Assembly (NCBI GenBank): GCA_964447495.1
Contig: CAYUTF010000053.1
Location: 1 to 22,682, forward strand
Direction: 5' to 3'
DNA: 22,682 nucleotides
From: an uncultured archaeon
GTDB lineage: Archaea; Asgardarchaeota; Lokiarchaeia; Sigyniarchaeales; SOKP01
Each line of letters opens with the position of its first letter. Positions within the stretch are counted from its first letter, which is position 1. The translations under genes were made by a program, and so were the position numbers. Positions 1 through 22,680 of this stretch are shown in pieces. The notes beneath the pieces are model-generated. The model did no database searches and was not told where the DNA came from. It worked only from the letters and a program-made list of their open reading frames with translations.

Positions 1-164
1 ATGTTTTTTATATAAGAGAATCAAATATTATTTATTTTTTATTAATTTTAGAAAGGATTTTCAGTTGACTTCTAAATCCTAACAGCCAAATATTAATAAT
101 CAATAAGCTCAAATTTAATATGTCCAAGATTAATCTAATACTTAAACTATATGAGGTTTCAAAA

Positions 165-650: not shown

Positions 651-838
651 AGCTTCTCTTGATTTCTTTATATTTTATTAGTTCTCTAATTCTAATTTTT
701 ATAAATAAAAATCATCCTTTTAAAAATCTAATAGATAATAACCCTCAGATTGATATTTAATTATTTACCTTATTAAATTGATATTAATCTATTTGAAAAT
801 ATATAAAGATATTAACTTATAAATTGATGATTTGTTAA

Positions 839-1405
839 ATGAATGTTAAAGAAGCTATAGAAATTAGACGGGCATACCGATCTTTAGAATCAATTGAGAT
901 CGATGATAACTTAATAAACGATTTAGCTCATGCTGCACAAATTGCTCCATCCTGTAATAATAATCAACCATGGCATTTCATTTTTGTCTATGAAAAAGAA
1001 CAACTACAAAAGCTATTTACAATCTTAACTCCTCATAATAAATGGATCGAGAAAGCTTCAATGATGATTGCTGTATTTTCAAATCCAAAAAATGATTGTA
1101 TAATCAATGAAAGAAAGTATTATCTTTTCGATACCGGCTTAGCAGTGGCTTTTATTATATTAAGGGCTACAGAACTAGGATTAGTTGCACATCCAATTGC
1201 TGGTTTTGATGAGAAAAAAGCAAAGGAAATATTAGAAATACCTGAAGAAATGAGACTAATTACTTTTATAAATATAGGTAAGCATTCTAGTGAGATTAAT
1301 CCCGTATTAAGCGAACCTATGAAGTTAGGTGAAAAACAAAGACCACCACGTAAATCTCTCTCTGAATTTGTGTACTTAAATAAATACGGAAATAATGCAA
1401 AATAA
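839..1405 (+). CDS. Nitroreductase-family flavoprotein
   Basis: N-terminal [39 protein letters not shown] and GFDE motifs typical of FMN nitroreductases. Confidence 0.9.
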
Positions 1406-1407
1406 TT

Positions 1408-6142: not shown

Positions 6143-6775
6143 TCATTTTTCTTTAAAAAGAAGATAGGCATCCCTTAATCTTAATAAAGCAGTAATAAAA
6201 ACCAAAATCGCAAAAGTCCAAAGCAGAATAATTCTCCAAAAATAAAATATAACTATTGCTAAAAAAAATATCAAAGTTTCTGAACGTTCCATTAAACCTC
6301 CATGATAATAAATTACTTTCTTTTTATCATTAATTTCTTCAGAATTATAAGCTCCTCCAATTAATAAGAACATGGTGATACAGAGGATAATAGCGCCTAA
6401 TGAGAATAATCCCGGATATATCAAATCTTTTAAATTAGTAGAAACGATTGAGATGATTATGAAAATTTCTACAGTTCTATCACAAAATATATCTAAAATC
6501 CCCCCAAAAATAGTTTTTCCTTTAGCTCTTGCTAGAGCTCCATCTAATGTATCAAAAAAGAATGAAATTATCATTAATACTATTGAAATTACTATTAAAA
6601 TGAAATTTAATTGTAAAAAAAGGTTACTTAAAAATATCGTAAGTGCAGTTAACAAACCTATTATTAAACCAATTATCGTAATTAAATTAGGCGAAACTCT
6701 CCCAAGAAATAATTTCTGAACAAAATTATCATAGGAATTTTTTAGTTTTGATTTTGATAACCACTTATCAATCAT
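6143..6775 (-). CDS. CDP-alcohol phosphatidyltransferase family protein
   Basis: Signature DTLDGALARAKGKTIFGGILDIFCDR, an SPNLIT motif and multiple hydrophobic helices. Confidence 0.92.
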   Translation of the reverse strand: MIDKWLSKSKLKNSYDNFVQKLFLGRVSPNLITIIGLIIGLLTALTIFLSNLFLQLNFILIVISIVLMIISFFFDTLDGALARAKGKTIFGGILDIFCDRTVEIFIIISIVSTNLKDLIYPGLFSLGAIILCITMFLLIGGAYNSEEINDKKKVIYYHGGLMERSETLIFFLAIVIFYFWRIILLWTFAILVFITALLRLRDAYLLFKEK

Positions 6776-6962: not shown

Positions 6963-7802
6963 TTAATATTCATTAGACATTTTTTTAAGTTCAGCAAGTG
7001 AGAATACAGGGCCATCAACACATACAAATTTATTTCCGATGTTGCATCTTCCGCACTTTCCGATACCACACTTCATTCTCATTTCTAGCGAATTTAATAT
7101 TTGTTCATCTTTCCACCCAAGGTTAACCAGCTCAGCTACCGCAGTTCTTATCATTATTGGAGGACCACAAACAACTGCTACGCCTTTATCCGGAGGTGGA
7201 GCAACTTTTTTAACGATTGCAGCTACAAAGCCAACTTCATGAGTCCATCCTTCTTCCTCACGATCGATGGTTAGCACCACCTTAATATCTTCTCGCTTCT
7301 CCCATTCTTCTAAAATTTCTCGATAAAGTAGTTCCCCGGAATCGCGGTTTCCATAAATAACTGTGATATTCCCATAATCATTCCTATGCTTTTTATCAAG
7401 CATAAATAAAATGAGAGACCTTAAAGTGGAAAATGCAAAGCCACCACCAATTACTACAATATTTTTTCCTTTCATCTCTTCTATTGGCCACCCATTTCCT
7501 AATGGACCTCTCACACCAACAGTATCTCCCATTTCACAATTGTGAAATCCAGAAGTTACAGTGCCCATTTTTTTAATTGTAAATTTTATTGTTCCTTCTT
7601 CAGTGGGAGAAGATGCTATTCCGATTGGGCATTCTCCTTTTCCTAATATACTAATTTCGGCAAATTGCCCCGGAATATAATCAAATGCTTTATAATCTTC
7701 GTCTTTCTTAAACTTTAATTCAATAGTTTTAATATCATTTACTTTATTCTCGGATACAAGTGATGCTACGGTGGTTAACATTGGAATATAAGGATTAGTC
7801 AT
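6963..7802 (-). CDS. flxA: FAD/NAD(P)-binding [2Fe-2S] oxidoreductase (FlxA/AsrB/PyrK-like)
   Basis: PGQF, VRGPLGNGW, GGGFAFSTLRS, CGPPIM and MKCGIGKCGRC...VC motifs. Last gene of the hdr operon, with a GAGGT RBS upstream. Confidence 0.88.
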   Translation of the reverse strand: MTNPYIPMLTTVASLVSENKVNDIKTIELKFKKDEDYKAFDYIPGQFAEISILGKGECPIGIASSPTEEGTIKFTIKKMGTVTSGFHNCEMGDTVGVRGPLGNGWPIEEMKGKNIVVIGGGFAFSTLRSLILFMLDKKHRNDYGNITVIYGNRDSGELLYREILEEWEKREDIKVVLTIDREEEGWTHEVGFVAAIVKKVAPPPDKGVAVVCGPPIMIRTAVAELVNLGWKDEQILNSLEMRMKCGIGKCGRCNIGNKFVCVDGPVFSLAELKKMSNEY

Positions 7803-7818
7803 TTATTTTATTTACCTC

Positions 7819-8856
7819 TTAAGATTCTATTGTTTCAATTTTTTTTAGAATTATTCTAAGATCATTATTAGCGGGACAGACATTAACACAGCGCCCGCAA
7901 CCAACACACCCAATTAAGCCGTAATTTTTTGGATAATAACTAAATTTATGCATGATGCGATTTCGACAACGTTCTATTTTGGTTGGACGAGGATTATGAC
8001 CACTTGTTTCTAATGTATAAAGACATGATTGACATGAATCCCAGATTCTTATCCTTCGACCTCGATCATGATAATTATCTTTTTCATCTATAACATCGAA
8101 ACAGGTGCATGTTGGGCATAAAAATGTGCAACTACCGCATCCTATGCAGGATTCACTAATTTCACGCCAAATAGGATGTACAAAATTCTTATCTAAATTT
8201 GATACGATTTTATCCACATCTAGATCAGTTGATATTGATTCTTCTGCTATTTTTGCTAGCTCCTCTGCTTTTTTCAGATCATCATCATTTGGTTTCCCAA
8301 GCCAAGTAAACTTTTGAAATATGCTATTTCCTTTTTCACTTATGATTTCAACTAAATATTTATCTCCCAAATCCACCAAAAATACGTCAACATCTTCCTT
8401 ATTAAAAGGATTTCCCCCTACGGAGGTACAGAAGCACGTTTGTCGAGGGGAGTTGCACCCCATACCTATAAGAACGGTGTTTTCTCTTTTTGTTAAATAA
8501 ATCTCATCCTTACAATCTCCATGAAACGAAAAAAAGTTTGCAAATAACATAAAACTATGGGCATCGCAAGGACGAATTCCAAAAATTATCTTTTTTTCCT
8601 CTAGATCTTTTCGATCCTCAATAATAACTTCTTTTCCTTCATATCGATATTCAAAAAGGACTTCGGTTTCTGGAAATAATATTTCTTTAGGTGGTACTTT
8701 TGAATTCAAAAAATCTAAATCAATATCTTCTGGATTCTCGATCTTTCTAAATGCTACATTTCCCTTCTCATTCACTGGCGCATAAAAAGTATAATCTTTC
8801 ACTAAAGCATTATACAATTTTCCAATATCTTTTTTTAACAAAATTTTATTTTCCAT
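7819..8856 (-). CDS. flxB: 4Fe-4S protein, AsrA/FlxB-like
   Basis: PPKEILFP, GIRPCD, CFCTS, CIGCGSCTFLCPTCTCFD, WDSC and CVGCGRCVNVCP motifs. GGTGAG RBS upstream. Confidence 0.85.
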   Translation of the reverse strand: MENKILLKKDIGKLYNALVKDYTFYAPVNEKGNVAFRKIENPEDIDLDFLNSKVPPKEILFPETEVLFEYRYEGKEVIIEDRKDLEEKKIIFGIRPCDAHSFMLFANFFSFHGDCKDEIYLTKRENTVLIGMGCNSPRQTCFCTSVGGNPFNKEDVDVFLVDLGDKYLVEIISEKGNSIFQKFTWLGKPNDDDLKKAEELAKIAEESISTDLDVDKIVSNLDKNFVHPIWREISESCIGCGSCTFLCPTCTCFDVIDEKDNYHDRGRRIRIWDSCQSCLYTLETSGHNPRPTKIERCRNRIMHKFSYYPKNYGLIGCVGCGRCVNVCPANNDLRIILKKIETIES

Positions 8857-8873
8857 ATAACAAACTCACCTAT

Positions 8874-9881
8874 TTAATCCTCCTCAAGCATAAATTCTTG
8901 TTTATCATCCATTTCAAAATGCATCATTGGTGGCATCTTTTTTAAATCAATACCACTTGTGAAGTTGAAATCTTCTTTTACCATTTTTTCTAATTTCCTT
9001 GTTATTAAATTCAAGTCAATTCCCATTGGACAGACACTACTACAGGCACCGCAAGCGACGCATCTTCCTGCTAAATGTAATGCTCTTACTAAATGAAAAA
9101 TAAAAACCTCTGATTTATCCGTTGTCTTTCCAAACCAAATTGGTTTGTTTTGATCTACGAAACATAAATTACAATAACACATTGGACATGCTTCTCTGCA
9201 AGCATAACATCTGATACAAGGACTCAATACTTCTGTGATATAGTTCCATTTCTCCTCGGGAGTTTTTGCTTCAAATTCCTTTACATCTGAAAATTCATCA
9301 TAAATAGATTCATATTCCACACATTCTCCTACACAGGCATCTGTCTTTGGTGGTGCTCTGATCTTGCATTCTTTACATAACTCATTTATATATTCATCAA
9401 ATGGAAAAGTTTTTTCAAAATCTTTACCTTTCACAATAATATCGTTTCCGGATGCTGAAACTTCTAAGATTTCTTTATCTCCAAGCTCTTTTTCAATTTT
9501 CTTTCTATTAATAATGCCATTACATGGAATACCTATTATTTTAATATTATCTAAATTTACTTGCTTCTCAATTGCCAATTGAATTAAAGCTCTCCCAACA
9601 CAGCCCTTCGCTACAATACCTACTTTTAAATCTCCTTTTTCAGGGTCAATTAACTGTGGCATTCGGGGTGCTAAATATTTCGCTAAATTGATATAACAAA
9701 GATTATTCCAAACAAGTTTCTCAACTTCTTCTTCATTTCTAACAATTATCAACGAGGTTCCTAAAGGAATAGTTCCTTTTGTATAACCTATAACTACATC
9801 AACTTCCTTATTCCTAAGGAGGTCTCTAGCGATTTCTTTAATTTTTTCTTCTATTTTTTGATTTTCTTCTTCAATACCCAT
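8874..9881 (-). CDS. flxC: 4Fe-4S protein with FrhB/FdhB-like N-terminus, FlxC-like
   Basis: VDVVIGY, KVGIVAKGC, IIGIPC, CIRCYACREACPMCYCNLC and HLAGRCVACGACSSVCP motifs. Lies between mvhD and flxB. Confidence 0.8.
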   Translation of the reverse strand: MGIEEENQKIEEKIKEIARDLLRNKEVDVVIGYTKGTIPLGTSLIIVRNEEEVEKLVWNNLCYINLAKYLAPRMPQLIDPEKGDLKVGIVAKGCVGRALIQLAIEKQVNLDNIKIIGIPCNGIINRKKIEKELGDKEILEVSASGNDIIVKGKDFEKTFPFDEYINELCKECKIRAPPKTDACVGECVEYESIYDEFSDVKEFEAKTPEEKWNYITEVLSPCIRCYACREACPMCYCNLCFVDQNKPIWFGKTTDKSEVFIFHLVRALHLAGRCVACGACSSVCPMGIDLNLITRKLEKMVKEDFNFTSGIDLKKMPPMMHFEMDDKQEFMLEED

Positions 9882-9886
9882 CTACA

Positions 9887-10354
9887 TCACCACTTTTTTA
9901 AAAATTTTTTATTCGGTCCTAATTTCTTTACATTTTCTGTTGCTTTTGCAATTAAGTTAGCAAATCGTTCACCTTCAGCAGCTGAAGCCCACATGAAATT
10001 AATTCTGCCCGGTTCTATACCAAAGAACTCTAAAAGCTTGTCGAGCATTGCAAAACGGCGTCTAGCAACTAAATTTCCACTAATATAGTGACAATCACCT
10101 GGATGACAACCTGAAACAACAATTCCATCCCATCCGTCTGTTAAAGCTTTAATGATAAAAAAGGGATTAATTCTACCGGTACATGGAACTCTGACAATTC
10201 TTACAGTTGCAGGGTATTGGATTCTACTTACTCCAGCTAAATCAGCTCCCGCGTAGGAACACCAATTACATAGGAATGCGAGAATTTTCGGCTTCCAATC
10301 CTTATCTTCTTTTATTTCTTTATCCTCTTCTGTTTCAAATACGATTTTACTCAT
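9887..10354 (-). CDS. mvhD: MvhD/FlxD [2Fe-2S] subunit
   Basis: AFLCNWCSYAGADLAG, RVPCTGR, GCHPGDCHY and WASAAEG motifs. GGGAGG RBS upstream. Confidence 0.95.
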   Translation of the reverse strand: MSKIVFETEEDKEIKEDKDWKPKILAFLCNWCSYAGADLAGVSRIQYPATVRIVRVPCTGRINPFFIIKALTDGWDGIVVSGCHPGDCHYISGNLVARRRFAMLDKLLEFFGIEPGRINFMWASAAEGERFANLIAKATENVKKLGPNKKFLKKW

Positions 10355-10356
10355 CT

Positions 10357-12354
10357 TTAAAACCTCCCTGTTATCATTTCAAATATTTGTTCAGAAGTAA
10401 AACCTTTAATATTAATTGCTGAACATCTGCAATTTCCTGCGCACGCACCACATCCTTTACATAATGCTTGGTTAACAGAAGCAATTCTTCCAAATCGTCT
10501 ATCTTCAACCAGTTCAACAGCACCATATGCACAATTTTCAACACACATTCCACAACCAATACATCTTTCGGGGGAGACAACGGCGTAAAAAGGCTCAATT
10601 TCGACTTCACCTTTAGACATTAATGCTGCAGCACTAGACGCAGCTCCTTTAGCTTGTGCTACCGCGTCTGGAATATCTTTTGGGCCTTGAGCCACACCAG
10701 CAATGAAAATTCCCTCCGTTAACGTATCAACGGGTCGTAATTTGGGGTGAGCTTCCATAAAAAAGCCATCTCCAGATTTCTGAATTCTTAATAGCGATGT
10801 AATTTTATCTGCATCTTTTCTTGGCTCTAAACCGCATGAAAGAACAAACAAATCGACTTCTAATTCAATCATTTGTTGAAGAAGTGTGTCTTCTGCCCTG
10901 ATGATAATTTGATGATCTTTTCCTTCACTAACTTCAGCAATTCTCCCTCTTATATAATTAATACCATAATTTCTTGCAGCAGATTCGTAAAACTCTTCAT
11001 AACCCTTTCCAAAAGCTCGGATATCAATATAGAAAATATAAATCTCTGCATCGGGATGTTTCTCCTTATATTGTCTCGCTTGTTTTGTTGCATACATACA
11101 ACACACTCTAGAACAATATTTATTCCCACCTTCCCTAAAATTTCTACTTCCAACGCACTGAAGAAAAGCAATTCTATGTGGCTCTTTAAGATCAGAAGGG
11201 CGTACAGGTTTTCCCAATAATGGTCCGAATGAACTCAATAAACGTTCCATTTGAAGCCCTGTTATTACATTTGGATATATACCATATCCATATTGTTTCA
11301 ACCCTGAAGGGTCAAATAAATCCCAGCCGGTAGCGACTATTATTGTGCCTACCTTAACTTTTATTTCTTCAGGCTTATCATCATATTTTATTGCTTCAGG
11401 TTCACAAACATTGGGTCGTGTACATATCCCACATTTAACGCAATGGTCCATATCAATGGTGTACTGTCCAGGAACTGCCTGAGGGAATGGAATATAAATC
11501 GCTTTTCTTGTAGCTAAACCAAGATCAAATTCATTCGCACATACAATAGGACAATAATCCACACAAGCTCCACAACCTGTACACTTTTCTTGATCAACAT
11601 AATGTGGTTTTTTTAAAATTGTTACTTCAAAATTCCCAATATAACCTGTTACGTCTACTACTTCAGAATAAGTCAAAAGCTCAATATTCTTACTTCTGGC
11701 AACATCAACCATCCTTGGGGTGAGTATACAAGCACTACAATCCATTGTGGGAAAGGTTTTATCTAGCTGTGCCATATGACCGCCAATAGTAGGCGATTTT
11801 TCAACTAGATATACTTTAAATCCTTCTGCAGCAAGATCTAATGCAGAATTCATACCCGCGATTCCACCACCAATGATTAAACACGATGGTTCTACTTTAA
11901 CTGTTTGAACTTCTAGTGGTACTAATTCTCTTGCTTTATTCACAGTTAATCGAATATGATCTTTTGCAATTTCGTACGCACCTTCAGGATCCCTCATATG
12001 AACCCAGGTGCTATGCTCGCGGATATTAGCCATCTCGAATAAAAATTGATTTAACCCTGCTTCTTTTAGCACTAATCTGAATGTAGGCTCATGCATACGG
12101 GGAGAACAAGCAGCAACAACCACACGATTGAGATTCATTTCCTGAATCTTTTTTTTAATAAGTGTTTGTCCAACATCAGAACACATAAATTTATAATCAG
12201 TAGCTAAAACTACATCAGGTAATGTTTTAGCATATTCGACTAAATCTTCTACAGGAACCACACCCGCTATATTAACCCCGCAATGACATACAAACACTCC
12301 AATTCGGGGTTTCTCATTACCAGTTACTATTATTTTCTTTTCAATTTCTGTCAA
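10357..12354 (-). CDS. hdrA: Heterodisulfide reductase subunit A (bifurcating FAD/Fe-S subunit)
   Basis: RIGVFVCHCG, ACSPRMHE, GGGIAG, DKTFPTMDCSACILTP, CVGSR, CSRVCCMYATKQA, plus inserted and C-terminal ferredoxin motifs. TTG start preceded by GGAGG. Confidence 0.97.
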   Translation of the reverse strand: MTEIEKKIIVTGNEKPRIGVFVCHCGVNIAGVVPVEDLVEYAKTLPDVVLATDYKFMCSDVGQTLIKKKIQEMNLNRVVVAACSPRMHEPTFRLVLKEAGLNQFLFEMANIREHSTWVHMRDPEGAYEIAKDHIRLTVNKARELVPLEVQTVKVEPSCLIIGGGIAGMNSALDLAAEGFKVYLVEKSPTIGGHMAQLDKTFPTMDCSACILTPRMVDVARSKNIELLTYSEVVDVTGYIGNFEVTILKKPHYVDQEKCTGCGACVDYCPIVCANEFDLGLATRKAIYIPFPQAVPGQYTIDMDHCVKCGICTRPNVCEPEAIKYDDKPEEIKVKVGTIIVATGWDLFDPSGLKQYGYGIYPNVITGLQMERLLSSFGPLLGKPVRPSDLKEPHRIAFLQCVGSRNFREGGNKYCSRVCCMYATKQARQYKEKHPDAEIYIFYIDIRAFGKGYEEFYESAARNYGINYIRGRIAEVSEGKDHQIIIRAEDTLLQQMIELEVDLFVLSCGLEPRKDADKITSLLRIQKSGDGFFMEAHPKLRPVDTLTEGIFIAGVAQGPKDIPDAVAQAKGAASSAAALMSKGEVEIEPFYAVVSPERCIGCGMCVENCAYGAVELVEDRRFGRIASVNQALCKGCGACAGNCRCSAINIKGFTSEQIFEMITGRF

Positions 12355-12366
12355 ATTTTATTCCTC

Positions 12367-13323
12367 CTATATTAGCTGGTTTTTAACTATATCTAAAAAA
12401 GGTTCAATTGGAATAAAGGGTGAAACACCTTGCAGATTGTGATTTTTTATTAAACCTAGTCGATTCGGATCCATACCCATAGCAACTCCTAACAGCTGGG
12501 TTATGTATATGACTGGAATTTTAAAAGGTTCTCCAATGATATCTTTATAAAAATTATTTACCTCAACTTGCCCGAGGTCAAACTGAAGATGACAAAAGGG
12601 ACAGCAATTTATGATAATGTCAGCACCTGCATCTCGCATATTCACTAACTTCTCACGTGTGAAATCAGCTGCAACTTCTTTGACTGCCGTTCTTACTGCT
12701 CCTCCAGCACCACAACACATGAATTTATCTTTATAGGGCACACTTTTTGCACCAGTAATTTCAACAATCTCATCAAGGAAAGTAGGCATTTCATACTCTC
12801 CATTCCAAGGACGTTTATCGCTTGGTTTAACAATGTGGCACCCATAATGAACTGCAACCTTTAAATCTTTGAAAGTATATTTAATACGATCTTTTAAATA
12901 ATCAAGCCCCATATCTAAATATAAAGCTTGTACAACATGCTTAGGTTCGAATGTTCCTTTATATGTACGTCCTACTTTGGCAAGTAATTCATTAACATGC
13001 TTTTTCTCTTTGGGATTATGTTCTAAATCATACCAAGCATCTCGAAGGGTTCCATAGCATCCATTACATCCTGTTAATGAACTAAGGCCTAGTTCCTCAG
13101 CAATAGAAATATTTCGCGCTGCAATAACTAACCATGTTGGGATATGAAATGCTCGAAATACTCCTGGAGCGGGACAACATGATGCTCCAGGCATGTCTAA
13201 TAGTTCTGCTCCAAGCTCATCAAATACATCCCTTATACTCCTTTCAATCATAGGATATCTATTTGGAATTACACATCCTAAAAAGAAAGCATATCGCCAT
13301 TTATATTGTGAATATTTACTCAT
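12367..13323 (-). CDS. hdrB: Heterodisulfide reductase subunit B (two CCG domains)
   Basis: FFLGC, ASCCPAPG, GCNGCY, HYGCH, MCCGAGG and CPFCHLQFD motifs. GAGGAGG RBS upstream. Confidence 0.97.
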   Translation of the reverse strand: MSKYSQYKWRYAFFLGCVIPNRYPMIERSIRDVFDELGAELLDMPGASCCPAPGVFRAFHIPTWLVIAARNISIAEELGLSSLTGCNGCYGTLRDAWYDLEHNPKEKKHVNELLAKVGRTYKGTFEPKHVVQALYLDMGLDYLKDRIKYTFKDLKVAVHYGCHIVKPSDKRPWNGEYEMPTFLDEIVEITGAKSVPYKDKFMCCGAGGAVRTAVKEVAADFTREKLVNMRDAGADIIINCCPFCHLQFDLGQVEVNNFYKDIIGEPFKIPVIYITQLLGVAMGMDPNRLGLIKNHNLQGVSPFIPIEPFLDIVKNQLI

Positions 13324-13945
13324 TTTTTTTTTCCTCCTCAGCTTTCTCTTTTGCTTTTTTTTCCTCCTCAGCTTTCCTCTCAGCTTTTAACTTAGCTGCA
13401 TTGTCTAATAAATCTCTAAAACCGACTTCATTCATTAGAGTCTGACATTCTTTGACGGCTTCTGGATAAGAATGAACAGTGGGTGGCAACGGAGGTAGCC
13501 CATAGGATTCGCGTAAATCTCGCCATTGCTTCTGATTTTCAGCATTAGCAGGTACCCCATGTCCCGTAGCGTAAAAAATATCGCTTGCCAAGGTAAAATG
13601 AGAGTCTAAAATATAGCCTTCCTCAACAGCAATGTTTCTTAATTTAATAATCATATCAGTAACTGGGATATTTCTAGGGCAACGCTCATAACAGTAATAA
13701 CACGTGCTACAAAACCAAATATCAATATCACTTAGAACAGATGTGTCTCCTGTAAGCGCTTTTCGAATGGCAGAACGAGTACGATATGCAGTACGTCTTC
13801 CGGAAGGACAACTGCCTGTACATGTACCACAATTAATACAAGCTCGGATCTTCTCCAATCCTGCATCCACAAATTTCTGGACAATCCGAGAGTTCTCCTT
13901 ACTATAAACTTTACGTTTAATATACTTTTCTACATTATCGCTCAT
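13316..13945 (-). CDS. hdrC: Heterodisulfide reductase subunit C (2x[4Fe-4S])
   Basis: CINCGTCTGSCPSGRRT, WFCSTCYYCYERCPR and TGHGVP motifs. Overlaps hdrB by 8 nt. Confidence 0.95.
   Translation of the reverse strand: MSDNVEKYIKRKVYSKENSRIVQKFVDAGLEKIRACINCGTCTGSCPSGRRTAYRTRSAIRKALTGDTSVLSDIDIWFCSTCYYCYERCPRNIPVTDMIIKLRNIAVEEGYILDSHFTLASDIFYATGHGVPANAENQKQWRDLRESYGLPPLPPTVHSYPEAVKECQTLMNEVGFRDLLDNAAKLKAERKAEEEKKAKEKAEEEKKNE
13325..13376. repeat. 22-bp direct repeat (30-bp period) encoding the duplicated KAEEEKK tail of HdrC
   Basis: TTTTTTTTCCTCCTCAGCTTTC at 13325-13346 and 13355-13376. Confidence 0.85.
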
Positions 13946-14750: not shown

Positions 14751-15211
14751 TTATTCCTTTCTAAAAACACGATATTTCTTGCTTGACTCAAAACTAGGAG
14801 AAATTTATCTCTTAATTGAAAAAATATATAAATTCTATTAAACAATTTGTAGTCCAATTCTTCACATAAATGAAGACATAAAAGTTAAAAAATTAGTAAA
14901 AAAAGTAAATTAAATGATAATAGATTGAATGCTTATTAATACTGCTTTTAATAGTTTGTTTTAATGTCAAATTAAAAGAGAGTTTAAAGTCGTCTTCTAG
15001 TAAAACGTAAATTTGTTTCAAAAGCAAAAGTTAGAATTATTAAACGACAAAATTTTTGTGTGTACAAATTATCAACCGTTTTCTACTTTTTCGCATTACT
15101 AATTTGAAAAACTGGCACATTGCATGCATTTAAATATTTGAAGTATATCTAATATGATAGTTTAAAAGTTAGATGTTGTTAATCTTTTATCTGAGGTATT
15201 TGAGGAGACGT

Positions 15212-15469
15212 ATGAATCTCAACTTTGATGACTTTAGTTATATAAAGAGTGAGTTTAAGCAGAAACTCCGCTGGTTTGAAGAAGAATTTGATTTAATCTT
15301 CAAAAACAAAACATACAATTATACTAAGGATGAAATCCAACTCGCAAATGAAATCCTTGACCATTTATCTGAAACTATAAACGAATATCGTGATGAAAGA
15401 CTGCTTTTTCATTTAGTAAATTCCCTTAATAGTATAGAAAGGAAGCATCCTGAATTCTTTTCAAAATAA
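15212..15469 (+). CDS. Small helical hypothetical protein
   Basis: ATG at 15212 is preceded by GAGGAG, so it is preferred over ORF-track start 15173. Protein-like composition. Confidence 0.65.
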   Translation: MNLNFDDFSYIKSEFKQKLRWFEEEFDLIFKNKTYNYTKDEIQLANEILDHLSETINEYRDERLLFHLVNSLNSIERKHPEFFSK

Positions 15470-15472
15470 GCT

Positions 15473-15865
15473 TCAGAAAAAAGGTCCGAATTTTTTATAA
15501 ATTCGTATTAAATTCTCCTTATAGAACTTTATCTTCTCATTCTTCGGATTTAATTGTCTTGCCTTCTCCATGGTAGCTTCTGCTTCTATAAAATTATTAT
15601 TATCCATATATGTAATGGTTAATAACCCCCATGCTTCTAATAAAGTTGGCTTTAGGTCTATAGCAGCTTTGAAGCAATCAATAGCATCTAGAAAAGCCCT
15701 TATTCGGCGTTTAGCAATACCTAAGAGGAGCCATGCTTCTTCATTTGACGGATCCTCATCTAACAATTTATTCAGGAATTTAATTGCTTTACTATTCTTC
15801 TTTTTGATTAAATAATCGTTTGCCCGTACTAATTCCTTGTCAAATCTTAAAGTTTCTAATTCCAT
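15473..15865 (-). CDS. Tetratricopeptide repeat protein
   Basis: About three TPR units: DPSNEEAWLLLG, AIDCFKAAIDLKP, EAWGLL, ARQLNPKN. Confidence 0.85.
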   Translation of the reverse strand: MELETLRFDKELVRANDYLIKKKNSKAIKFLNKLLDEDPSNEEAWLLLGIAKRRIRAFLDAIDCFKAAIDLKPTLLEAWGLLTITYMDNNNFIEAEATMEKARQLNPKNEKIKFYKENLIRIYKKFGPFF

Positions 15866-16039: not shown

Positions 16040-17299
16040 TTGGTTTCCTCAAGTATAATTCTAAAAAATCAATCAATTTTAAATATTAATCAATTTCTGG
16101 AACTTTATACCGAAATTAATAGATTAGATTTACATAATATTTTGAAACTTGATTTTAACTTAGATTATAGTGTGCTAGAACGATATGTTAAATCCCAGCG
16201 AATTTGCCCTATTATAGAATTGGCTAAACCAGGAGATGCTGAAGAGATATCCCAGATTTTCAAGGAAATTTACCAAGGGACATATCCATATAAAAGGATG
16301 GAAAACTCTGACAGCATTTCTGATATGATCAATGATCCAAATTATTACTGGTTTTTATTCAAGCTCAATTCCGGGGAAATTGTAGGGGCTTTTGGAGCAC
16401 ATTTAGAATTTGAAGAGAAGCGAGGATTCCTTTATGGATTTGTTATTAAAAAAGGATTCCATAAAACGATTGATGTTTTTAAAGCTTTTATCGGATGTGC
16501 GATATATTTATGGAAAAAGTATCAAGAACAGATTTTAATGTGGTATGGAGAGATGCGAACGAATGAAACATCATCACAATTCTTTACCTCCATTGTTGGA
16601 ATGAAACCAGTTGCATTTTTCCCAAATAAAGATCTCTTTTTCAATAAAAAAGAATCTGATATTTTACATGTGATTTATGATCGAAAGCTAATAAGAAACT
16701 TACGTAAAAAGGCGCAACCAGAGATTATACGACAAGCAATAAATTCTTATACTTATATTAATAAAAGATTTAATTTAGGACTACCAATCGTTAAAAATCC
16801 CGAAATTAAACTTGACCGAGAAAAAATAAAAAAAATAAAGATTGAAACCGAAATTACGATGGAGGAAGAGGAATTCGGAAATAAAAGAATCACAATATCA
16901 AATAAAAATTCTAAATCCTATTTCAAATTTCTCTATAACCCAAATAGTAAAAATTTTGAAAAAACAGAATATAATGTTGAATCTTTAGAAGAACTATATA
17001 CTTTTCTTAATGAAGCGAAGAGATTAATCAAAGATATGGATATAAATTATTTCGAATGTTTCGTTTCAGCCTATAATGCTGAACATCAAAAACTTTTCAA
17101 TGACTTAGGTTTCTGCCCAAGAGGTTATGTTCCTTCTTGGAAATATAATAAAACTACTAATCTTTTCGAGGATCGCATTGTTTTCAATTATTTTAAGGGA
17201 GATTTAGATAAGAAGATGCGAATTATCCCTGAAGTCGAAGAACTTCTTAAGATATTAAATATCTTTGAAGAAGATTATCCCCAAAACATATTCAAATAA
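16040..17299 (+). CDS. GNAT-fold N-acyltransferase-like protein (probably tandem GNAT)
   Basis: IELAKPGDAEEISQIFKEIYQGTYPY...GEIVG is a typical GNAT N-terminus. Two motif-B-like segments (SQFFTSIVGMKPVAFFP and HQKLFNDLGFCPRGYVP). TTG start. Confidence 0.7.
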   Translation: MVSSSIILKNQSILNINQFLELYTEINRLDLHNILKLDFNLDYSVLERYVKSQRICPIIELAKPGDAEEISQIFKEIYQGTYPYKRMENSDSISDMINDPNYYWFLFKLNSGEIVGAFGAHLEFEEKRGFLYGFVIKKGFHKTIDVFKAFIGCAIYLWKKYQEQILMWYGEMRTNETSSQFFTSIVGMKPVAFFPNKDLFFNKKESDILHVIYDRKLIRNLRKKAQPEIIRQAINSYTYINKRFNLGLPIVKNPEIKLDREKIKKIKIETEITMEEEEFGNKRITISNKNSKSYFKFLYNPNSKNFEKTEYNVESLEELYTFLNEAKRLIKDMDINYFECFVSAYNAEHQKLFNDLGFCPRGYVPSWKYNKTTNLFEDRIVFNYFKGDLDKKMRIIPEVEELLKILNIFEEDYPQNIFK

Positions 17300-17373
17300 A
17301 AGTAACATCAACTAATTTTTAATTGAAGGGACATTTTAATTTATTAATTTAAGAAACTTATCATTATTTTATC

Positions 17374-18228
17374 TTGCTTGAAGAAAAAAAGTTAACAAGT
17401 TGGAATGACCAATATTGGAATCAGATAAAAAGAAATATTGGATTAATTAGTATAGCAGAACAAGAAAGAATAAAGAAGGCTAGGATTGCTATTTTCGGAG
17501 TCGGAGGATTAGGTGGACCTGTTTTAGAACAACTTGTAAGAAGTGGATGTGAATATATAAATATTTGTGATAATGATAAATTTATTGGGTCAAATTTAAA
17601 TCGCCAATTATGTTACAATGAAGATATTGGAACCTTTAAGATCGATTTTTTTCATAAGATTACCAAAAAAATTAATCCAAATATTAATATTGAAAAATAT
17701 TACAGAATTGATAAAGAGAATATCGCTTCAATTCTAAAGGATGTTAACATAGCAGTTTTATGTTTAGATGATCCTCTTGCATCCATCATAATTACGAGGG
17801 CATGCTTAAAGCATAAAATACCATTATTAGAATCCTGGGGTATTCCTTATCTTTGTGCTTGGTATTTCACTTCTGATAGTGTGGATTATGAATCATGTTA
17901 TAAATTAGACACAAAAAGATTAAGTATCGATGAGATAAAAAAATCTACTGTGCTCCAAAAAAATATTAAGAATAAAATTTTGAGCAGGTTAACCCAATTT
18001 CCTGGAATAAAAGAAAGATTTGATAGAGAGTCGGGAGTATTAGAGGGTTTACTATCAGGACAATTGTCATCTATTTCCTTTGCTCCTATTGTAAGGCTTT
18101 CTGCTTCTTATTTAGCGTTTGAAGTTATATTTAGTGGCATTTTGAAAATAAAAAAGATGGTAAAAGCTCCGAAAGTAATTGGTTATGATTATTTAGAAAT
18201 GAAATCTTTTGAATTTGATTTTATTTAA
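17374..18228 (+). CDS. ThiF/MoeB/E1-like adenylyltransferase
   Basis: KRNIGL (Arg finger), EQERIKKARIAIFGVGGLGG, DNDKFIGSNLNRQ, KINPNI and LCLDD motifs. No CxxC Zn motifs. TTG start. Confidence 0.9.
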   Translation: MLEEKKLTSWNDQYWNQIKRNIGLISIAEQERIKKARIAIFGVGGLGGPVLEQLVRSGCEYINICDNDKFIGSNLNRQLCYNEDIGTFKIDFFHKITKKINPNINIEKYYRIDKENIASILKDVNIAVLCLDDPLASIIITRACLKHKIPLLESWGIPYLCAWYFTSDSVDYESCYKLDTKRLSIDEIKKSTVLQKNIKNKILSRLTQFPGIKERFDRESGVLEGLLSGQLSSISFAPIVRLSASYLAFEVIFSGILKIKKMVKAPKVIGYDYLEMKSFEFDFI

Positions 18229-18345
18229 TTAAATTTCAATTTCTTAACACATATCAAAAACTATAAATATAAAATAATTAAGCATTTTAAGGTAAAAGTA
18301 ATTTTATAAAGTATAGAAACACATTTATAATTATAAGAATAAATT

Positions 18346-19068
18346 TTGATAAGTGATATTTTGATATTCCAGATAAGTGAAATTGCTCGAATCTTGATTG
18401 TTGTTTTTATGCATTCATTTCTTGTAATTTTATTATATATCTTATCTTTTAAAATTTTAAGAAGAAATTTCAATCGGATGACATTAAATTTAAGTCTATT
18501 CTATTTCTTGCCCGCAACAGGTTTTTTACTAAACCTTATTTTTTTTACACTAAGCACGAGTTTAATTGGATATATCTTATATTTTATCTCTGCTTTTTGC
18601 ACTTTAAGCGGATTTATTTTTTTAATTATAGTTATGATTAATTTAACTAACATAGAATCATATATTTCAACAAAAAAGCAACTTTTAATAATTATTGCTT
18701 ATCTTTCCATAGGTCTATTAATTTTATTTATACCAGGTGGAATAACTATAAATGAATCTACAAACTGGACACCAGTATTTAGCCTTACTTTTTTTATTAT
18801 CATGTATACATTCTTTTCTTCAATAATATTCATCCCATCTTTAATCCTGTCATATAAAATTTATATATCATTTAAAGATAAAAAGTTAAAGAACAAATTT
18901 TTATTTTTTTTCATTGGAATAATTGGAATGTTGATAGCTTTTTATGGATTAATCCTTTTTAACACTTGGTATAATAGTACTTTTAGAACTATATGGACAT
19001 TTTTAGTTTTTTTTATTGTAGTCCCTTCTGGGATTTTTATTTATTATGGGATTATTCATAAATTATAA
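18346..19068 (+). CDS. Standalone ~7-TM membrane protein (HisKA_7TM-like sensor topology)
   Basis: Seven hydrophobic stretches, basic loops (RRNFNR, TKKQ, KDKKLKNK) and a polar GGITINESTNWTPVFS loop between TM4 and TM5. TTG start. Confidence 0.7.
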   Translation: MISDILIFQISEIARILIVVFMHSFLVILLYILSFKILRRNFNRMTLNLSLFYFLPATGFLLNLIFFTLSTSLIGYILYFISAFCTLSGFIFLIIVMINLTNIESYISTKKQLLIIIAYLSIGLLILFIPGGITINESTNWTPVFSLTFFIIMYTFFSSIIFIPSLILSYKIYISFKDKKLKNKFLFFFIGIIGMLIAFYGLILFNTWYNSTFRTIWTFLVFFIVVPSGIFIYYGIIHKL

Positions 19069-19116
19069 TGACTTATTACATTTCCAATCATTTTTAAATC
19101 AAAATAATTCCTTTTA

Positions 19117-20190
19117 TTGAAAGAAATATTAAACATTCCTATGGAAGATTTAAATTTTAGATTATTAGAAGATCCTAATGAGATATTAAACTATTTACAT
19201 TTAGGAATTTCAATACCAATAATTCCAGAATTCAAAAAATATATTTTAAAGACTTTTGAAGCATATAAAGTTAAAGCTTTATTATTAGAAGATATCTCAT
19301 CTAATGAAATTTTTGATGATAGAATAGATAATGTTGTAGGTATCACTATTATTTATGATGATGGTGCAGACAAATTGTTTTTTGGATTTTTTGGTGTATA
19401 TGATCATAGTAAAAAAAAAATTGAGTTTTTAACCAATCAATTAATTGAATACGCCAAAAATAATAATTATAACTATATTAGAGGTCCTGTAAATATACCT
19501 GCTGTGATATTTGGCTGGGGATTTATGGAAGAAGGAAGTAGTAAATCACTATTCATTTCTTGCCCGATAAATCCCCCTATTTATCAAAATATCTTCTTCG
19601 AAAAAGGATTTTATATAAAATTTGAAGAAGATAGATATGATGTAGTTGTAATTAAATTAAATCCATATAAATTGAAGAAAAAAAATGGGAGCTATTACAA
19701 TTTTTCTGATTACGAATATAAAAATCCCAATATGAATGAAATTTGGGAGACTATTAATGATATAGTTAATTTGCATCTAAATTTCATGCCACCATCAGCT
19801 CAAATTAGTCCTTTAAATCCAATCAATACTCAAGTCCATTTAGAGTTTATTTATGAATTTGGATCAGAATCCCATATATGGACAGTTTATCATAAACCAA
19901 CAAATAAAATGGTAGCTTGTGGGTTTATTGTACCTAATCCTTTCTCAAAAGATAAAAAAAATCGAGTTGACTCTGCTAGTTTTCATGATTGGGTGGTGCA
20001 TCCAGATCATAGACGCTCTGGACTTGCAATGTTGATGTATGGATGTACCTCAATGAAAGTTTATAAAGAGGGCTTGAGATGGGGATCTTGGCCAGTAGGC
20101 GCGGAAAATAAAGCTAATGCTGCAGCAGCACGAAAAATGAAAGGAATTAGAGACAGGCGTCATTTAATTTTAGAATTAAAATTAAATTAA
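19117..20190 (+). CDS. YghO/bCerS-like tandem GNAT acyltransferase
   Basis: FFGFF...IRGPVN...GFMEEG...PINPPIY...KGF in the N-domain. C-domain acyl-CoA motif VVHPDHRRSGLA followed by ENKAN...KMKG. Start is TTG 19117 or ATG 19141. Confidence 0.72.
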   Translation: MKEILNIPMEDLNFRLLEDPNEILNYLHLGISIPIIPEFKKYILKTFEAYKVKALLLEDISSNEIFDDRIDNVVGITIIYDDGADKLFFGFFGVYDHSKKKIEFLTNQLIEYAKNNNYNYIRGPVNIPAVIFGWGFMEEGSSKSLFISCPINPPIYQNIFFEKGFYIKFEEDRYDVVVIKLNPYKLKKKNGSYYNFSDYEYKNPNMNEIWETINDIVNLHLNFMPPSAQISPLNPINTQVHLEFIYEFGSESHIWTVYHKPTNKMVACGFIVPNPFSKDKKNRVDSASFHDWVVHPDHRRSGLAMLMYGCTSMKVYKEGLRWGSWPVGAENKANAAAARKMKGIRDRRHLILELKLN

Positions 20191-20208
20191 AAAACATAAT
20201 AATATTTT

Positions 20209-22680
20209 TTATCCCATTATTATTGGAATAGAGAAGAAAAAAGTGCAACCCTTATTTCGCCCACTCGATTCGACCCAAATTTGGCCCCCATGTAATTCTA
20301 TAATTTCTTTGCAGATATAAAGCCCTAATCCTGTCCCTTCTATTCCAACATCCCATCCTTGCCCATAGCGTTCAATTTTTCCGAACTGCTTAAAAATTTG
20401 GTTTTTTTCTTCTTTAGTAAGTCCAATTCCATTATCTTTAATTGAAATAATAATGAATTTCTCTTTTACTGAAGAATTTACAATAATTTGCCCCCCAACT
20501 GGAGTATATTTAATTGCGTTTATTATTAAGTTAGATAAAACTTCGTAAATTCTCTCTTTATCAAATTCAGTTATCAAGTCATCTTGAATATCAATCTTAA
20601 CTTTTTGTTTTCGTAATTCAGCTGCTCCTTCTAGTTGCCTAACGCAATACTTTATAAGAAACGACAGATTTTCTTTAGCATACTTTAATTTTAATAAGCC
20701 CTGTTCTAACTTTGAGCTCTCTAATATCGAATTGATATAATCTTCTAATCGCCGACTCCCTTTTTGAATTTCCTCTAATATTGATACGATTTCTTTATCT
20801 AACTTGTTATAATGGAGATTTAATAATAATTCGGTGAAACCTTTTATTGATATCAATGGCGTTTTTAATTCATGGGAAGTTCTTGAGAATAAATCGGTCT
20901 TTAATTTATTAATTTCACTTAGTGTTCTATTCTGTTCTTCTAAATGTTGTTGTACTTGCCAACGTTTTTGTTCAATTTCAATAGCATCGCATATAAGGAA
21001 TAGCACTAGTTGGTTTTGATTTGTTATGTTAGGGTAATCTTTATACATGACGCACAAACATTCATTCAAATCTGTTCCCGACATGATTAATTTTCCATAC
21101 GCATGCTTAATATTATTCTTTTTAATATAGTCATCTGTTTTTACATATTCTAATTTATCAATATCATTAAAAATCTGTGGGAAATCATGTTTTTCATTAA
21201 ATAATTCATTAACAAATAATTTTTCTTTAAATTCCTCTTCAGACAAGGTTTCTACTTTACCCTTGTTGGTGATAACCTTGTATAACTCTTCGCTTTCTTG
21301 CTTATCTTTATTAACATATATAACAAAATCACCATTTAATAATTTTAAACACGTGCAAAGAAGTAATTGAATATTCTTTTGAATATCGGTGGTGAAATTT
21401 AAAAAGTTTATATTTAATTCATAAATAAGCTCTTCATACATTTTCTTCTCAGTTACATCCTCTAACCATAAACGGAAGCTTAAAATATCGCCATTTTCAT
21501 TATATTTATTTGATTTTTTTCCTTTTAACCATTTTAGTTTACCATTTTTTGAAATAATACGGAATTCTATTTCTTTATCTTCGGAGCTGCGAAAAAGTTT
21601 TTTAACATCATCAGGATGAATGATATCATCTATTAACTTCTTATACACTGACTCTTTTTCTTGAAATCCTACCAATTCCAACAATTTTGGATTAAGATAC
21701 GAAACACGTTCATTAGCAACGTTGAATTCAATAATTCCGACAGAGGATGTTTCTAATAGATCACGATATTGTTCTTCCGATTCTTTAATTTTCTGCTCAG
21801 CTAATTCTCGTTCTGTTATATCATCTACAGTAAAAATCATGTTTTCTATTTCTCCATCTTTTCCTATTAATGGTGTACCGTTAATAGATAATAGAATAAG
21901 GTTGTTATTTGGTAATTTTAAAAATAAATGGAGATCAAATATTGGTTTTTTCATTTTGGATATCATTTGAAAGGGCAACTTTTCTTTAGGAATGTCTTTT
22001 CCTTCAGAATCAACGAATCGAAATAGAGAGGTAAAAATTGTATCTTTGGTCAATTCATCTTTTGGAAATTGAAGCACTTTTTCAGCTTGAGAATTAGCAA
22101 ATGTGATATTACCTTTTTTATCCACAGAAATAATTCCAGCAGGATTTGTTTCCATTATCCGTTCTAACCTGTCATGTTGGAGCAATAAATCTTCTTCGGC
22201 TTTTTTTCTTTCAGTGATATCATCAAAAGTGATTAATACACCCACTACTTTTCCATCTGAATCATTTAGAGGTATTCTATTGGTATTTACCCATATTTTT
22301 TCTCCAATCTTTAAAGTCCAATATTCAATATTGCGAAATTTTGGTTTATTGGTTTCAATGACTTCGTTCTCTTTTTCATTGTTGAAATTAATTTGAAATT
22401 CATCGATCATTAATTCGGGATCAGATTTATTGATTATATTTTCTGGATGTTCAATCCCAATTAAATTAGCGTAATTATCATTGCAGCCGAGATATTTTAA
22501 TTCTAAGTCTTTCCAATATATATATTGTGGAATATTCTCCATAACTATTTGGAGCATTTCGTAAGAGCTCTGTAATGCTTCCTCATACCTTTTAGGATTA
22601 AATAGTTTCCAAAAACGTATCTCTGGTATTGTTTCAGTTATTTTTTTAAAGCGTTCTTCATTAAAGCGTAATTCTTCTTC
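20209..22680 (-). CDS. Multi-PAS sensor histidine kinase (5' end outside the window)
   Basis: Three PAS/PAC units ending in DITE-like motifs, a GAF-like region, H-box SHELKTPL, N-box NLIINAIKYT, DNGIG and GTGLGL. The frame stays open for 41 codons upstream of ATG 22557 to the window edge. Confidence 0.93.
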   Translation of the reverse strand, partial: EEELRFNEERFKKITETIPEIRFWKLFNPKRYEEALQSSYEMLQIVMENIPQYIYWKDLELKYLGCNDNYANLIGIEHPENIINKSDPELMIDEFQINFNNEKENEVIETNKPKFRNIEYWTLKIGEKIWVNTNRIPLNDSDGKVVGVLITFDDITERKKAEEDLLLQHDRLERIMETNPAGIISVDKKGNITFANSQAEKVLQFPKDELTKDTIFTSLFRFVDSEGKDIPKEKLPFQMISKMKKPIFDLHLFLKLPNNNLILLSINGTPLIGKDGEIENMIFTVDDITERELAEQKIKESEEQYRDLLETSSVGIIEFNVANERVSYLNPKLLELVGFQEKESVYKKLIDDIIHPDDVKKLFRSSEDKEIEFRIISKNGKLKWLKGKKSNKYNENGDILSFRLWLEDVTEKKMYEELIYELNINFLNFTTDIQKNIQLLLCTCLKLLNGDFVIYVNKDKQESEELYKVITNKGKVETLSEEEFKEKLFVNELFNEKHDFPQIFNDIDKLEYVKTDDYIKKNNIKHAYGKLIMSGTDLNECLCVMYKDYPNITNQNQLVLFLICDAIEIEQKRWQVQQHLEEQNRTLSEINKLKTDLFSRTSHELKTPLISIKGFTELLLNLHYNKLDKEIVSILEEIQKGSRRLEDYINSILESSKLEQGLLKLKYAKENLSFLIKYCVRQLEGAAELRKQKVKIDIQDDLITEFDKERIYEVLSNLIINAIKYTPVGGQIIVNSSVKEKFIIISIKDNGIGLTKEEKNQIFKQFGKIERYGQGWDVGIEGTGLGLYICKEIIELHGGQIWVESSGRNKGCTFFFSIPIIMG

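Follow-up and report, generated by a model that had tools for sequence, protein, structure and literature searches.

A stretch of 22,682 nt from a Loki-type Asgard archaeon, which is the entire contig G000:C53 and is referred to here as the window, contains four co-oriented genes encoding a GNAT-like protein (GNAT1), a stand-alone E1/ThiF-like adenylyltransferase (E1), a polytopic membrane protein of about seven predicted helices (7TM) and a second GNAT-like protein (GNAT2). These four genes are a real unit that is restricted to the Loki-type Asgard lineage, and are best read as a lineage-specific, insertable biosynthetic cassette of one Loki-type Asgard family. GNAT1 and GNAT2 form its constant core, and the activating enzyme and the membrane protein vary. 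We propose tentatively, and at a little under even confidence, that the GNAT pair would make an N-acyl carboxylate which is then activated by the E1.

A conserved four-gene unit

All of the 29 short loci from other genomes have GNAT1 or GNAT2 within 1.5 kb of the E1 gene, and the four families occur together in 16 of the 20 loci that were fetched with wider flanks. The gene order is variable. Counting the window, GNAT1-E1-7TM-GNAT2 is present in four loci, GNAT1-GNAT2-E1-7TM in seven and GNAT1-E1-GNAT2-7TM in three, and a further three have GNAT1-E1-7TM with GNAT2 on the opposite strand. Five paralogous copies are situated elsewhere in the genomes, without the TPR gene, orf98 or the histidine kinase that flank the window's copy, and GNAT1 and GNAT2 are naturally fused in two 748 aa proteins, P0332 and P0360 (hhalign E values of 4e-100 and 1.4e-65). 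A reading of the window made from its sequence alone had treated the four genes as one locus, and the four arrangements, the paralogous copies and the fusions bear this out. The records of the close relatives carry the labels Promethearchaeota/Lokiarchaeia, and for each of the four genes the relatives, at 32-80% identity, number from dozens to hundreds, by which we take all four open reading frames (ORFs) to be genuine genes. A literature search combining Asgard, ThiF and GNAT found no paper on the cassette.

An accessory nature is suggested by the distribution of the E1, by an empty site in four relatives (described below) and by base composition. In a search of 400 genomes of the phylum, full-length E1 relatives (E <1e-40) occur in 49 of the 134 that belong to the family of the window and in 3 of 14 of a sister family, often in multiple copies. 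The genome has a low GC content (0.314) and that of the cassette is lower still (0.272), within the lowest 6.2% of windows of the same size. E1 homologues of other classes, at 34-38% identity (loci L118-L120), have different neighbours, with no GNAT1, GNAT2 or 7TM gene at these loci, and the cassette is therefore documented only within the order.

Two small genes upstream of GNAT1 were considered as further members. The TPR gene is present in 12 of the 20 wider loci and in none of the five paralogous copies; its co-occurrence with the cassette is limited to this chromosomal position, which makes its membership doubtful. In L136, a site lacking the cassette also encodes a weak TPR-like relative (phmmer E 1.1e-12). 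Gene orf98, found in 11 of the 20 loci and absent from the paralogous copies, likewise travels with the cassette at this site only; its relatives are 85-90 aa long and start at an internal methionine.

Activating enzymes and membrane partners are exchangeable

Loci that contain the GNAT pair without this E1 reveal which parts are replaceable. A second locus of the same genome, on contig C58, has a GNAT1 paralogue, a PP-loop ATPase gene and a GNAT2-like gene, and no E1. Genomes of genus g12 lack the E1 and encode GNAT1 (often fused to DUF998), a GNAT2-like protein and an 8-9-helix membrane protein of another family, together with one or two PP-loop ATPases that have an SGGKDS motif and weak matches to QueC and argininosuccinate synthase. 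Both an E1 and a PP-loop gene are present at one locus (L052), beside a gene for a protein of about 12 helices, and another (L130) has 7TM, GNAT1 and GNAT2 genes and no activating enzyme. In seven of nine loci of Riflebacteria/Ozemobacteraceae, genes for LuxE and for a LuxC-AMP-binding fusion come directly after a distant GNAT1-like gene. Because three unrelated folds (E1, PP-loop and LuxE) serve as activating partner, we infer that the GNAT product would carry a free carboxylate and that the E1 would act after acylation.

The membrane partner belongs to at least four unrelated kinds, and a partner of this type is obligatory for the cassette. It can also be covalently joined to GNAT1: 18 of the best 120 GNAT1 hits are fusions of 638-671 aa with a membrane domain, and this C-terminal domain is annotated as DUF998 (PF06197) in 13 of the 18. 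The profile of the 7TM family has no similarity to the DUF998 part of one such fusion, P0109 (probability 0.4%).

Some of these loci have additional genes. The C58 segment (G000:C58:2764-11164) also encodes a 1269 aa protein with four predicted helices and a 121 aa protein, and a block of the same type, with a 1260 aa protein and neighbours of 284 and 250 aa, recurs in L053, L054 and L114-L116. The Riflebacteria row occupies approximately positions 7000-12000 of L088, L091, L092, L094 and L098-L100, where the GNAT1-like protein is 396 aa long and is followed by LuxE and LuxC-AMP-binding; a literature search for this row found no description.

The E1/ThiF-like enzyme

Judged by its conserved residues, the E1 is a member of its superfamily with intact adenylation motifs. 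It matches ThiF (PF00899) with an E value of 2.2e-36 and 125.7 bits, against a cut-off of 28.1, and G42-x-G44-G45-x-G47-G48, D66, N76-R77-Q78, K89 and D132-D133 are invariant in 20 aligned E1 sequences; we take the roles of these residues in adenylation to be those familiar from MoeB and ThiF. The protein is a ThiF domain alone, without a rhodanese domain, a nitroreductase domain or an N-terminal peptide clamp, and the alignment of 20 sequences has no CxxC zinc pairs. Solved E1 structures align only to its first ~155 residues. The best of these matches is a 'THIF-type NAD/FAD binding fold domain-containing protein' of 264-265 aa (9egc, 9egb and 9egd; E 9e-19), and a literature search on the codes 9EGC, 9EGB and 9EGD found no paper. 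The next relatives are Uba1, MccB (E 3.3e-17) and PaaA (E 1.2e-16); residues 103-237 of MccB align to residues 23-154 of the E1, so that about 100 MccB residues have no counterpart, with 22 residues lying ahead of the E1 core.

Every NCBIfam equivalog cut-off is missed by a wide margin: the E1 scores 95.3 against a cut-off of 159 for ThiF, 92.9 against 275 for TIGR02356, 76.4 against 266 for MoeB, 67.4 against 450 for UbaA and 38.4 against 304 for TcdA. Its third-best NCBIfam match, and the one with the longest coverage, is to an unnamed family, PRK08223 (87 bits). The genome has four ThiF genes, among which that of the cassette is the most divergent, and up to six ThiF-type matches are found per genome. 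One of the other three (on contig C3, 250 aa) is a full-length MoeB/UbaA match. The remaining two, G000:C62:15436-16671 (411 aa) and G000:C67:13336-14919 (527 aa), encode larger Uba-like E1s that score best with ThiF/MoeB models and also match the ubiquitin-activating E1 model TIGR01408, though without reaching its cut-off (E values of 1e-31 and 8.5e-33); these two may be components of Asgard ubiquitin-like systems. The sequence-only reading had reckoned with the cassette E1 being a housekeeping ortholog of TcdA, MoeB or UbaA. We reject this identity, and that of ThiF, on the missed cut-offs, the lack of zinc pairs, the patchy multi-copy distribution and the divergence from the other ThiF genes.

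The two GNAT-like proteins

Taken singly, both GNAT proteins of the window fall under the 20.7-bit cut-off of Acetyltransf_1 (GNAT1, E 0.0044; GNAT2, E 0.0026). Scanned member by member, this family matches 40 of 69 GNAT1 relatives (best E 2.2e-05) and 16 of 17 GNAT2 relatives (best E 1.4e-07), and Acetyltransf_3, _7 and _10 are also matched. By these profile matches the designation of both as GNAT-like acyltransferases, which had been made from the window's sequence, stands at the level of the family. The GNAT signal is confined to the N-terminal part of GNAT1, in which a GNAT-like domain at approximately residues 55-215 is followed by a conserved C-terminal domain, and to the C-terminal part of GNAT2, where it follows a conserved N-terminal domain. 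We do not regard these as double-GNAT proteins, because hhalign comparison of the halves of GNAT1 and GNAT2 shows no similarity (probabilities of at most 5%).

The two proteins differ in the acyl-CoA loop of motif A that is characteristic of the GNAT superfamily, which is present in GNAT2 and not in GNAT1. GNAT2 has a canonical motif A (H-R-R-x-G-L-A), beginning at H298 in the window (H298-R-R-S-G-L-A) and conserved as HRRKGL, and is likely to be an acyl-CoA-using transferase. The CoA pyrophosphate loop of GNAT1 is degenerate, with KKxYQKxxD instead of Q/R-x-x-G-x-G/A and loss of the glycines; distant GNAT1 relatives retain the loop as YQGxG. No profile search of the PDB with GNAT1 reached an E value below 0.09. 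Among solved structures, GNAT2 is matched best, at the level of its profile, by the motif-A region of an N-myristoyltransferase (NMT; 1iyk, E 2.8e-05 over 66 residues), and the runner-up GNAT has an E value of 0.011.

GNAT1 is the signature protein of the cassette. A protein collection clustered at 90% contains 405 GNAT1 and 214 GNAT2 relatives, with every named record labelled as Asgard, and a profile search of 1.84 billion representatives returned 358 GNAT1 relatives. Distant GNAT1 relatives occur under the labels Riflebacteria/Ozemobacteraceae, Patescibacteria and Bathyarchaeota; a search for related loci with P0480 found none.

A proposed pathway

In the pathway that we propose, GNAT2, which keeps the acyl-CoA loop, and GNAT1 would together N-acylate at the membrane an amino-acid-like amine bearing a free carboxylate, with GNAT1, whose loop is degenerate, perhaps serving as acceptor binder or scaffold. 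The stand-alone E1 would then adenylate the carboxylate of the N-acyl product, and the adenylate would be ring-closed in an oxazolone-like manner or captured by another nucleophile. The seven-helix protein could anchor the enzymes, or could handle or export the hydrophobic product.

Several points weigh against this pathway. We infer the order of its steps solely from which parts are dispensable, and all of its chemistry from gene association among related genomes; indeed, the genomes behind all of the evidence are related and do not count as independent samples. GNAT1 may not be an enzyme at all, because the glycine-rich CoA loop is lost, and the remaining halves of both GNAT proteins match nothing in profile searches that include the PDB. 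Families of the LuxI, FeeM or OxzA type are not among the Pfam families listed as matched by either protein (nine for GNAT2 and the first 25 of 41 for GNAT1). The E1 scores only 22.2 bits against a cut-off of 476 with NF005901 (Rv1355c), a comparison with oxazolone cyclases that covers the TrzS family model only. Neither a flavin oxidase nor a nitroreductase is fused or adjacent to the cassette in Pfam scans of its genes and flanks; the only nitroreductase gene of the window lies on the far side of the Hdr cluster, at a distance of 14.6 kb, and none of 20 related loci has a homologue of it. Finally, co-transcription of the four genes is putative; the intergenic gaps are AT-rich, and a TATA-like element ahead of the 7TM gene is conserved between the window and locus L035. 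This element, a 25-nt AT-rich stretch with the TATA-like core TTTATAAAG, is near-identical in the two loci and lies just 5' of the 7TM gene, which may therefore have an archaeal promoter of its own.

The proposal would, if correct, add to what is known of such pathways in three ways: by new families of acyltransferase, by a membrane partner that is obligatory, and by activators (E1, PP-loop and LuxE) that can be interchanged. The cassette is compact and readily testable, since its three enzymes are soluble, none of its partners is cofactor-heavy and natural variants are numerous, and it offers a possible route to the first Asgard-specific acylated metabolite or membrane modification.

A possible modification of the membrane or envelope

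The cassette might instead modify the cell's own membrane or envelope, with a lipid head group, a lipid-linked glycan or a protein N-terminus being acylated or aminoacylated; GNAT2 would act in the manner of an NMT, and presenting or flipping the substrate would fall to the membrane protein. The obligatory tie to at least four unrelated kinds of polytopic protein, including the GNAT1-DUF998 fusions, is consistent with this, as is the NMT acyl-CoA site being the best solved match of the GNAT2 profile, and two of the fused membrane parts faintly touch Frag1/DRAM/Sfk1 (E 0.008 and 0.0096, below cut-off). However, the NMT match is restricted to the motif-A residues and pairs the C-terminal half of GNAT2 with the N-terminal half of NMT. 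The cassette has no linked genes for lipid synthesis or glycosylation, the window's gene for a CDP-alcohol phosphatidyltransferase is part of the conserved backbone, and the participation of an E1, a PP-loop enzyme or LuxE is explained more easily by a free carboxylate on a small product. We regard envelope modification as unlikely, and favour the N-acyl carboxylate pathway.

The seven-helix protein and the PAS kinase

The sequence-only reading had gone further and linked the enzymes to a quorum-sensing-like circuit, in which a diffusible acyl-amide is sensed by the 7TM protein and/or the convergent multi-PAS kinase. The 7TM protein is predicted to have about seven helices, with its N-terminus outside by the positive-inside rule. 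We counted the helices from the sequence and from hydrophobic blocks that are conserved in the alignment; a crude hydropathy scan gives nine peaks, some of them overlapping. The most conserved motifs (PGGIT, NW.P.YS and NTW) are in predicted outer loops, and in favour of the circuit a protein of this kind does accompany the enzymes. In the kinase, Pfam recognises HisKA, HATPase_c and three or four PAS domains; its full-length orthologues are about 940 aa long with no membrane helix, and a soluble kinase of this type would need a membrane partner. It is adjacent to the cassette or within 18 kb of it in 11 of the 20 wider loci, on either side (at the far end in seven and on the TPR side in four). 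Lastly, a language-model search with a 7TM homologue returned its own family and a faint lead to HisKA_7TM (score 0.88, 10% of one cluster).

The conservation of the chromosomal site argues against a functional link with the kinase. In four relatives (L134, L136, L137 and L138) the HdrC-o75-kinase backbone is intact with no cassette between; at a fifth such locus, L135, the contig breaks off. We conclude that the cassette has been either inserted or deleted next to a backbone kinase. Kinases at the sites lacking the cassette are closer to that of the window (63-68% identity) than are the cassette-adjacent ones (56-59%), five genomes of the same genus (G239, G245, G252, G254 and G256) keep the kinase and have no E1-family gene, and none of the five paralogous cassettes has a kinase within 18 kb. 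The unrelated Hdr/Mvh cluster, our control for synteny by descent, is just as constant a neighbour, being present in seven of the same 20 loci; it is strongly syntenic across the family, with 80-86% identity for HdrA, HdrB and HdrC. We judge the kinase to be a backbone neighbour that stands outside the cassette, and its proposed link to the cassette is unsupported.

The 7TM protein fares no better as a dedicated receptor. It is replaced in sister cassettes by unrelated polytopic proteins or by a fused DUF998 domain, and its wider family extends far beyond the enzymes: 127 of the 135 family genomes carry it, in 1-11 copies that are often tandem and that lie, for the most part, apart from the E1. 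No Pfam family matches the protein or any of its 88 close relatives in the 90% clustered collection, among which all named records are labelled as Asgard. The lead to HisKA_7TM was not confirmed by a search of its own genome with PF16927, which gave no match at E <=0.01, and PF07695 (7TMR-DISM_7TM) is touched by 4 of 16 members with a best E value of 0.012. A signal-sensor circuit is thus improbable, and we withdraw the quorum-sensing reading as unsupported.

A narrower version has in our estimation a slight chance of being correct. In it, the product would be a membrane-active N-acyl amide, and the seven-helix protein of the cassette, shaped like a G-protein-coupled receptor, would be the cognate receptor. 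Were it so, Loki-type Asgard archaea would have a lipid signal of their own making and, in a 7TM family with up to 11 copies per genome, a receptor repertoire, which is a ligand-receptor logic hitherto associated with eukaryotes.

Two further observations concern these proteins. At L126, L127, L128, L129 and L131, 7TM paralogues are arranged as tandem pairs or triplets amid 8-11-helix proteins and small soluble proteins; GNAT and E1 genes are absent from this second 7TM neighbourhood, which is conserved. Three genes past the PAS kinase in L136, L137 and L138 is a gene for a membrane-bound kinase-like protein of 739-868 aa with about seven predicted helices; its counterpart in L134 has 802 aa and about five helices and that in L135 has 523 aa and none, and the window ends before this position.

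Possible peptide and ubiquitin-like substrates

The relationship of the E1 to MccB and PaaA, which are among its best solved relatives, raises the question of whether the cassette belongs with pathways for ribosomally synthesized and post-translationally modified peptides (RiPPs). A ThiF-like enzyme would adenylate the C-terminus of a very short precursor, as do MccB, PaaA and GrcB, with the GNATs serving for tailoring or immunity and the membrane protein for export. Such clusters contain acetyltransferases and transporters (PMC12250964), and precursors as short as seven residues can escape ORF lists. However, the E1 lacks both an N-terminal peptide clamp and a RiPP recognition element (RRE), in keeping with the ~100 unmatched residues of MccB, and no small ORF is conserved in the gap between the E1 and 7TM genes aligned in 13 loci, a check of small-ORF conservation that covers this gap only. 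Moreover, sister cassettes dispense with the E1 and never with the GNATs, which is the opposite of what a ThiF-centred pathway predicts. We consider a RiPP-like pathway very improbable.

The sequence-only reading had also remarked that no gene for a ubiquitin-like protein (Ubl), an E2, a JAB protein or a precursor peptide is adjacent, and this agrees with Pfam scans of the flanking ORFs, with the alignment of the E1-7TM gap, and with a count of Gly-Gly C-termini: the window and 20 related loci together have 519 ORFs of at most 130 aa, and none of them ends in Gly-Gly. That the E1 activates a Ubl or sulfur carrier encoded elsewhere, with its linkage to GNAT genes being incidental, is hardly credible: the adenylation domain is complete, Asgard genomes do have Ubl systems and this one has two further Uba-like E1s, but in addition to the missing Ubl, E2 and JAB genes, the missing zinc pairs and scores far below the MoeB, ThiF, UbaA and TcdA cut-offs, the GNAT linkage is tight and survives rearrangement, and the E1 is present in just 49 of the 134 family genomes.

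Locus layout and neighbouring genes

The coordinates of the cassette and of its neighbours are given in Table 1. The intergenic gaps of the cassette are 74, 117 and 48 nt, and 18 nt separate the GNAT2 stop from the convergent kinase ORF; the ORF list agrees exactly with the layout first described for this co-oriented quartet and the kinase. Scans for sigma-70 promoters and terminators gave 37 sites against 34 expected, and such bacterial signals are uninformative for an archaeon. The 12 sequencing runs listed for the locus are all of DNA, mostly from salt marsh metagenomes.

Table 1. Genes and other features of the 22,682 nt window.
Feature	Coordinates	Strand	Remarks
Redox genes	120-3531		AhpC/TSA peroxiredoxin, small nitroreductase, DUF255 thioredoxin-domain protein
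Nitroreductase	839-1405		only nitroreductase gene of the window
CDP-alcohol phosphatidyltransferase	6143-6775		conserved backbone
Hdr/Mvh cluster	6963-13945	-	HdrC, HdrB, HdrA, MvhD, FrhB-like, Fer4_22, FAD/NAD oxidoreductase
orf98, small conserved soluble protein	15173-15469	+	no family match
TPR protein	15473-15865	-	130 aa
GNAT1	16040-17299	+	419 aa; TTG start
E1/ThiF-like adenylyltransferase, stand-alone	17374-18228	+	284 aa; TTG start
Region with TATA-like element	18261-18345		25-nt AT-rich stretch
Polytopic membrane protein, ~7 predicted helices (7TM)	18346-19068	+	240 aa; TTG start
GNAT2	19117-20190	+	357 aa; TTG start
Multi-PAS histidine kinase, soluble	20209-22680	-	truncated by contig end

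The redox genes at the left end of the window are a set unrelated to the cassette; the DUF255 gene is also found on the conserved backbone in L137.

Comparison with known systems

The cassette E1 shares with MoeB, ThiF, UbaA and TcdA a Rossmann-type adenylation core and the catalytic residues common to them, but the three other ThiF genes of the genome fit the housekeeping roles of these enzymes better. A resemblance to N-myristoyltransferases is provided by the C-terminal acyl-CoA strand-loop-helix of GNAT2, which matches NMT better than it does any other solved GNAT. It differs in that the similarity spans 66 residues only and that the order of the domains is reversed, and we treat it as a lead and not as homology of the whole proteins; a literature search combining N-myristoyltransferase and Asgard found no paper.

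Like the RiPP clusters of MccB/MccE/MccC, PaaA and GrcB, the cassette places an E1-like adenylyltransferase beside one or more GNATs and a membrane protein. Unlike these, its E1 has neither peptide clamp nor RRE, and it is the GNATs that are constant and the E1 that is dispensable. The LuxC/LuxE fatty-acid reductase module is related in another way, in that the Riflebacteria relatives of GNAT1 share an operon with LuxE (PF04443), another carboxylate activator. The adenylating fold of LuxE is unrelated to that of E1, however, and reduction would be the expected outcome. The module is absent from the window, and the parallel is one of partner logic only.

The closest likeness is to the bacterial acyl-oxazolone pathways, in which the chemistry foreseen by the sequence-only reading, acylation by a GNAT followed by activation or cyclisation by an E1, has been demonstrated; an N-acyltransferase and a ThiF-like cyclase, supplied with ATP, yield acyl-oxazolones in vitro. 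OxzA of Pseudoalteromonas rubra makes N-acyl tyrosine from acyl-CoA, and OxzB, a ThiF-nitroreductase, converts this to the oxazolone only with ATP (10.1101/2020.06.11.147165); TyzA, the stand-alone ThiF protein TyzB (318 aa) and the flavin oxidase TyzC follow the same route in Mycobacterium tuberculosis (PMC10404671); and TrzA/TrzS, of M. tuberculosis and relatives, make tryptazolones, with ThiF, oxidase and acyltransferase genes adjacent or fused (PMC12856293). These pathways and the cassette have in common an N-acyltransferase and a ThiF-like enzyme, which in the bacterial systems performs an ATP-dependent adenylation of the carboxylate and ring closure. They are unlike in that the cassette has two GNAT proteins of new families where the bacterial pathways have one LuxI/FeeM-like synthase, and in its obligatory membrane protein, an E1 that a PP-loop enzyme can replace, and an archaeal host. 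Because it has no oxidase, because its GNATs are not of the LuxI/FeeM type and because the E1 scores 22 bits with the TrzS model, we do not file the cassette as a member of this group, and suggest only that it may work like an acyl-oxazolone pathway. According to a 2025 review (PMC12596934), the oxazolone ThiF-like enzyme is the only one known to act on a small molecule, and this use of ThiF is validated only in bacteria; if the N-acyl carboxylate pathway is correct, the same logic would extend to the Asgard archaea.

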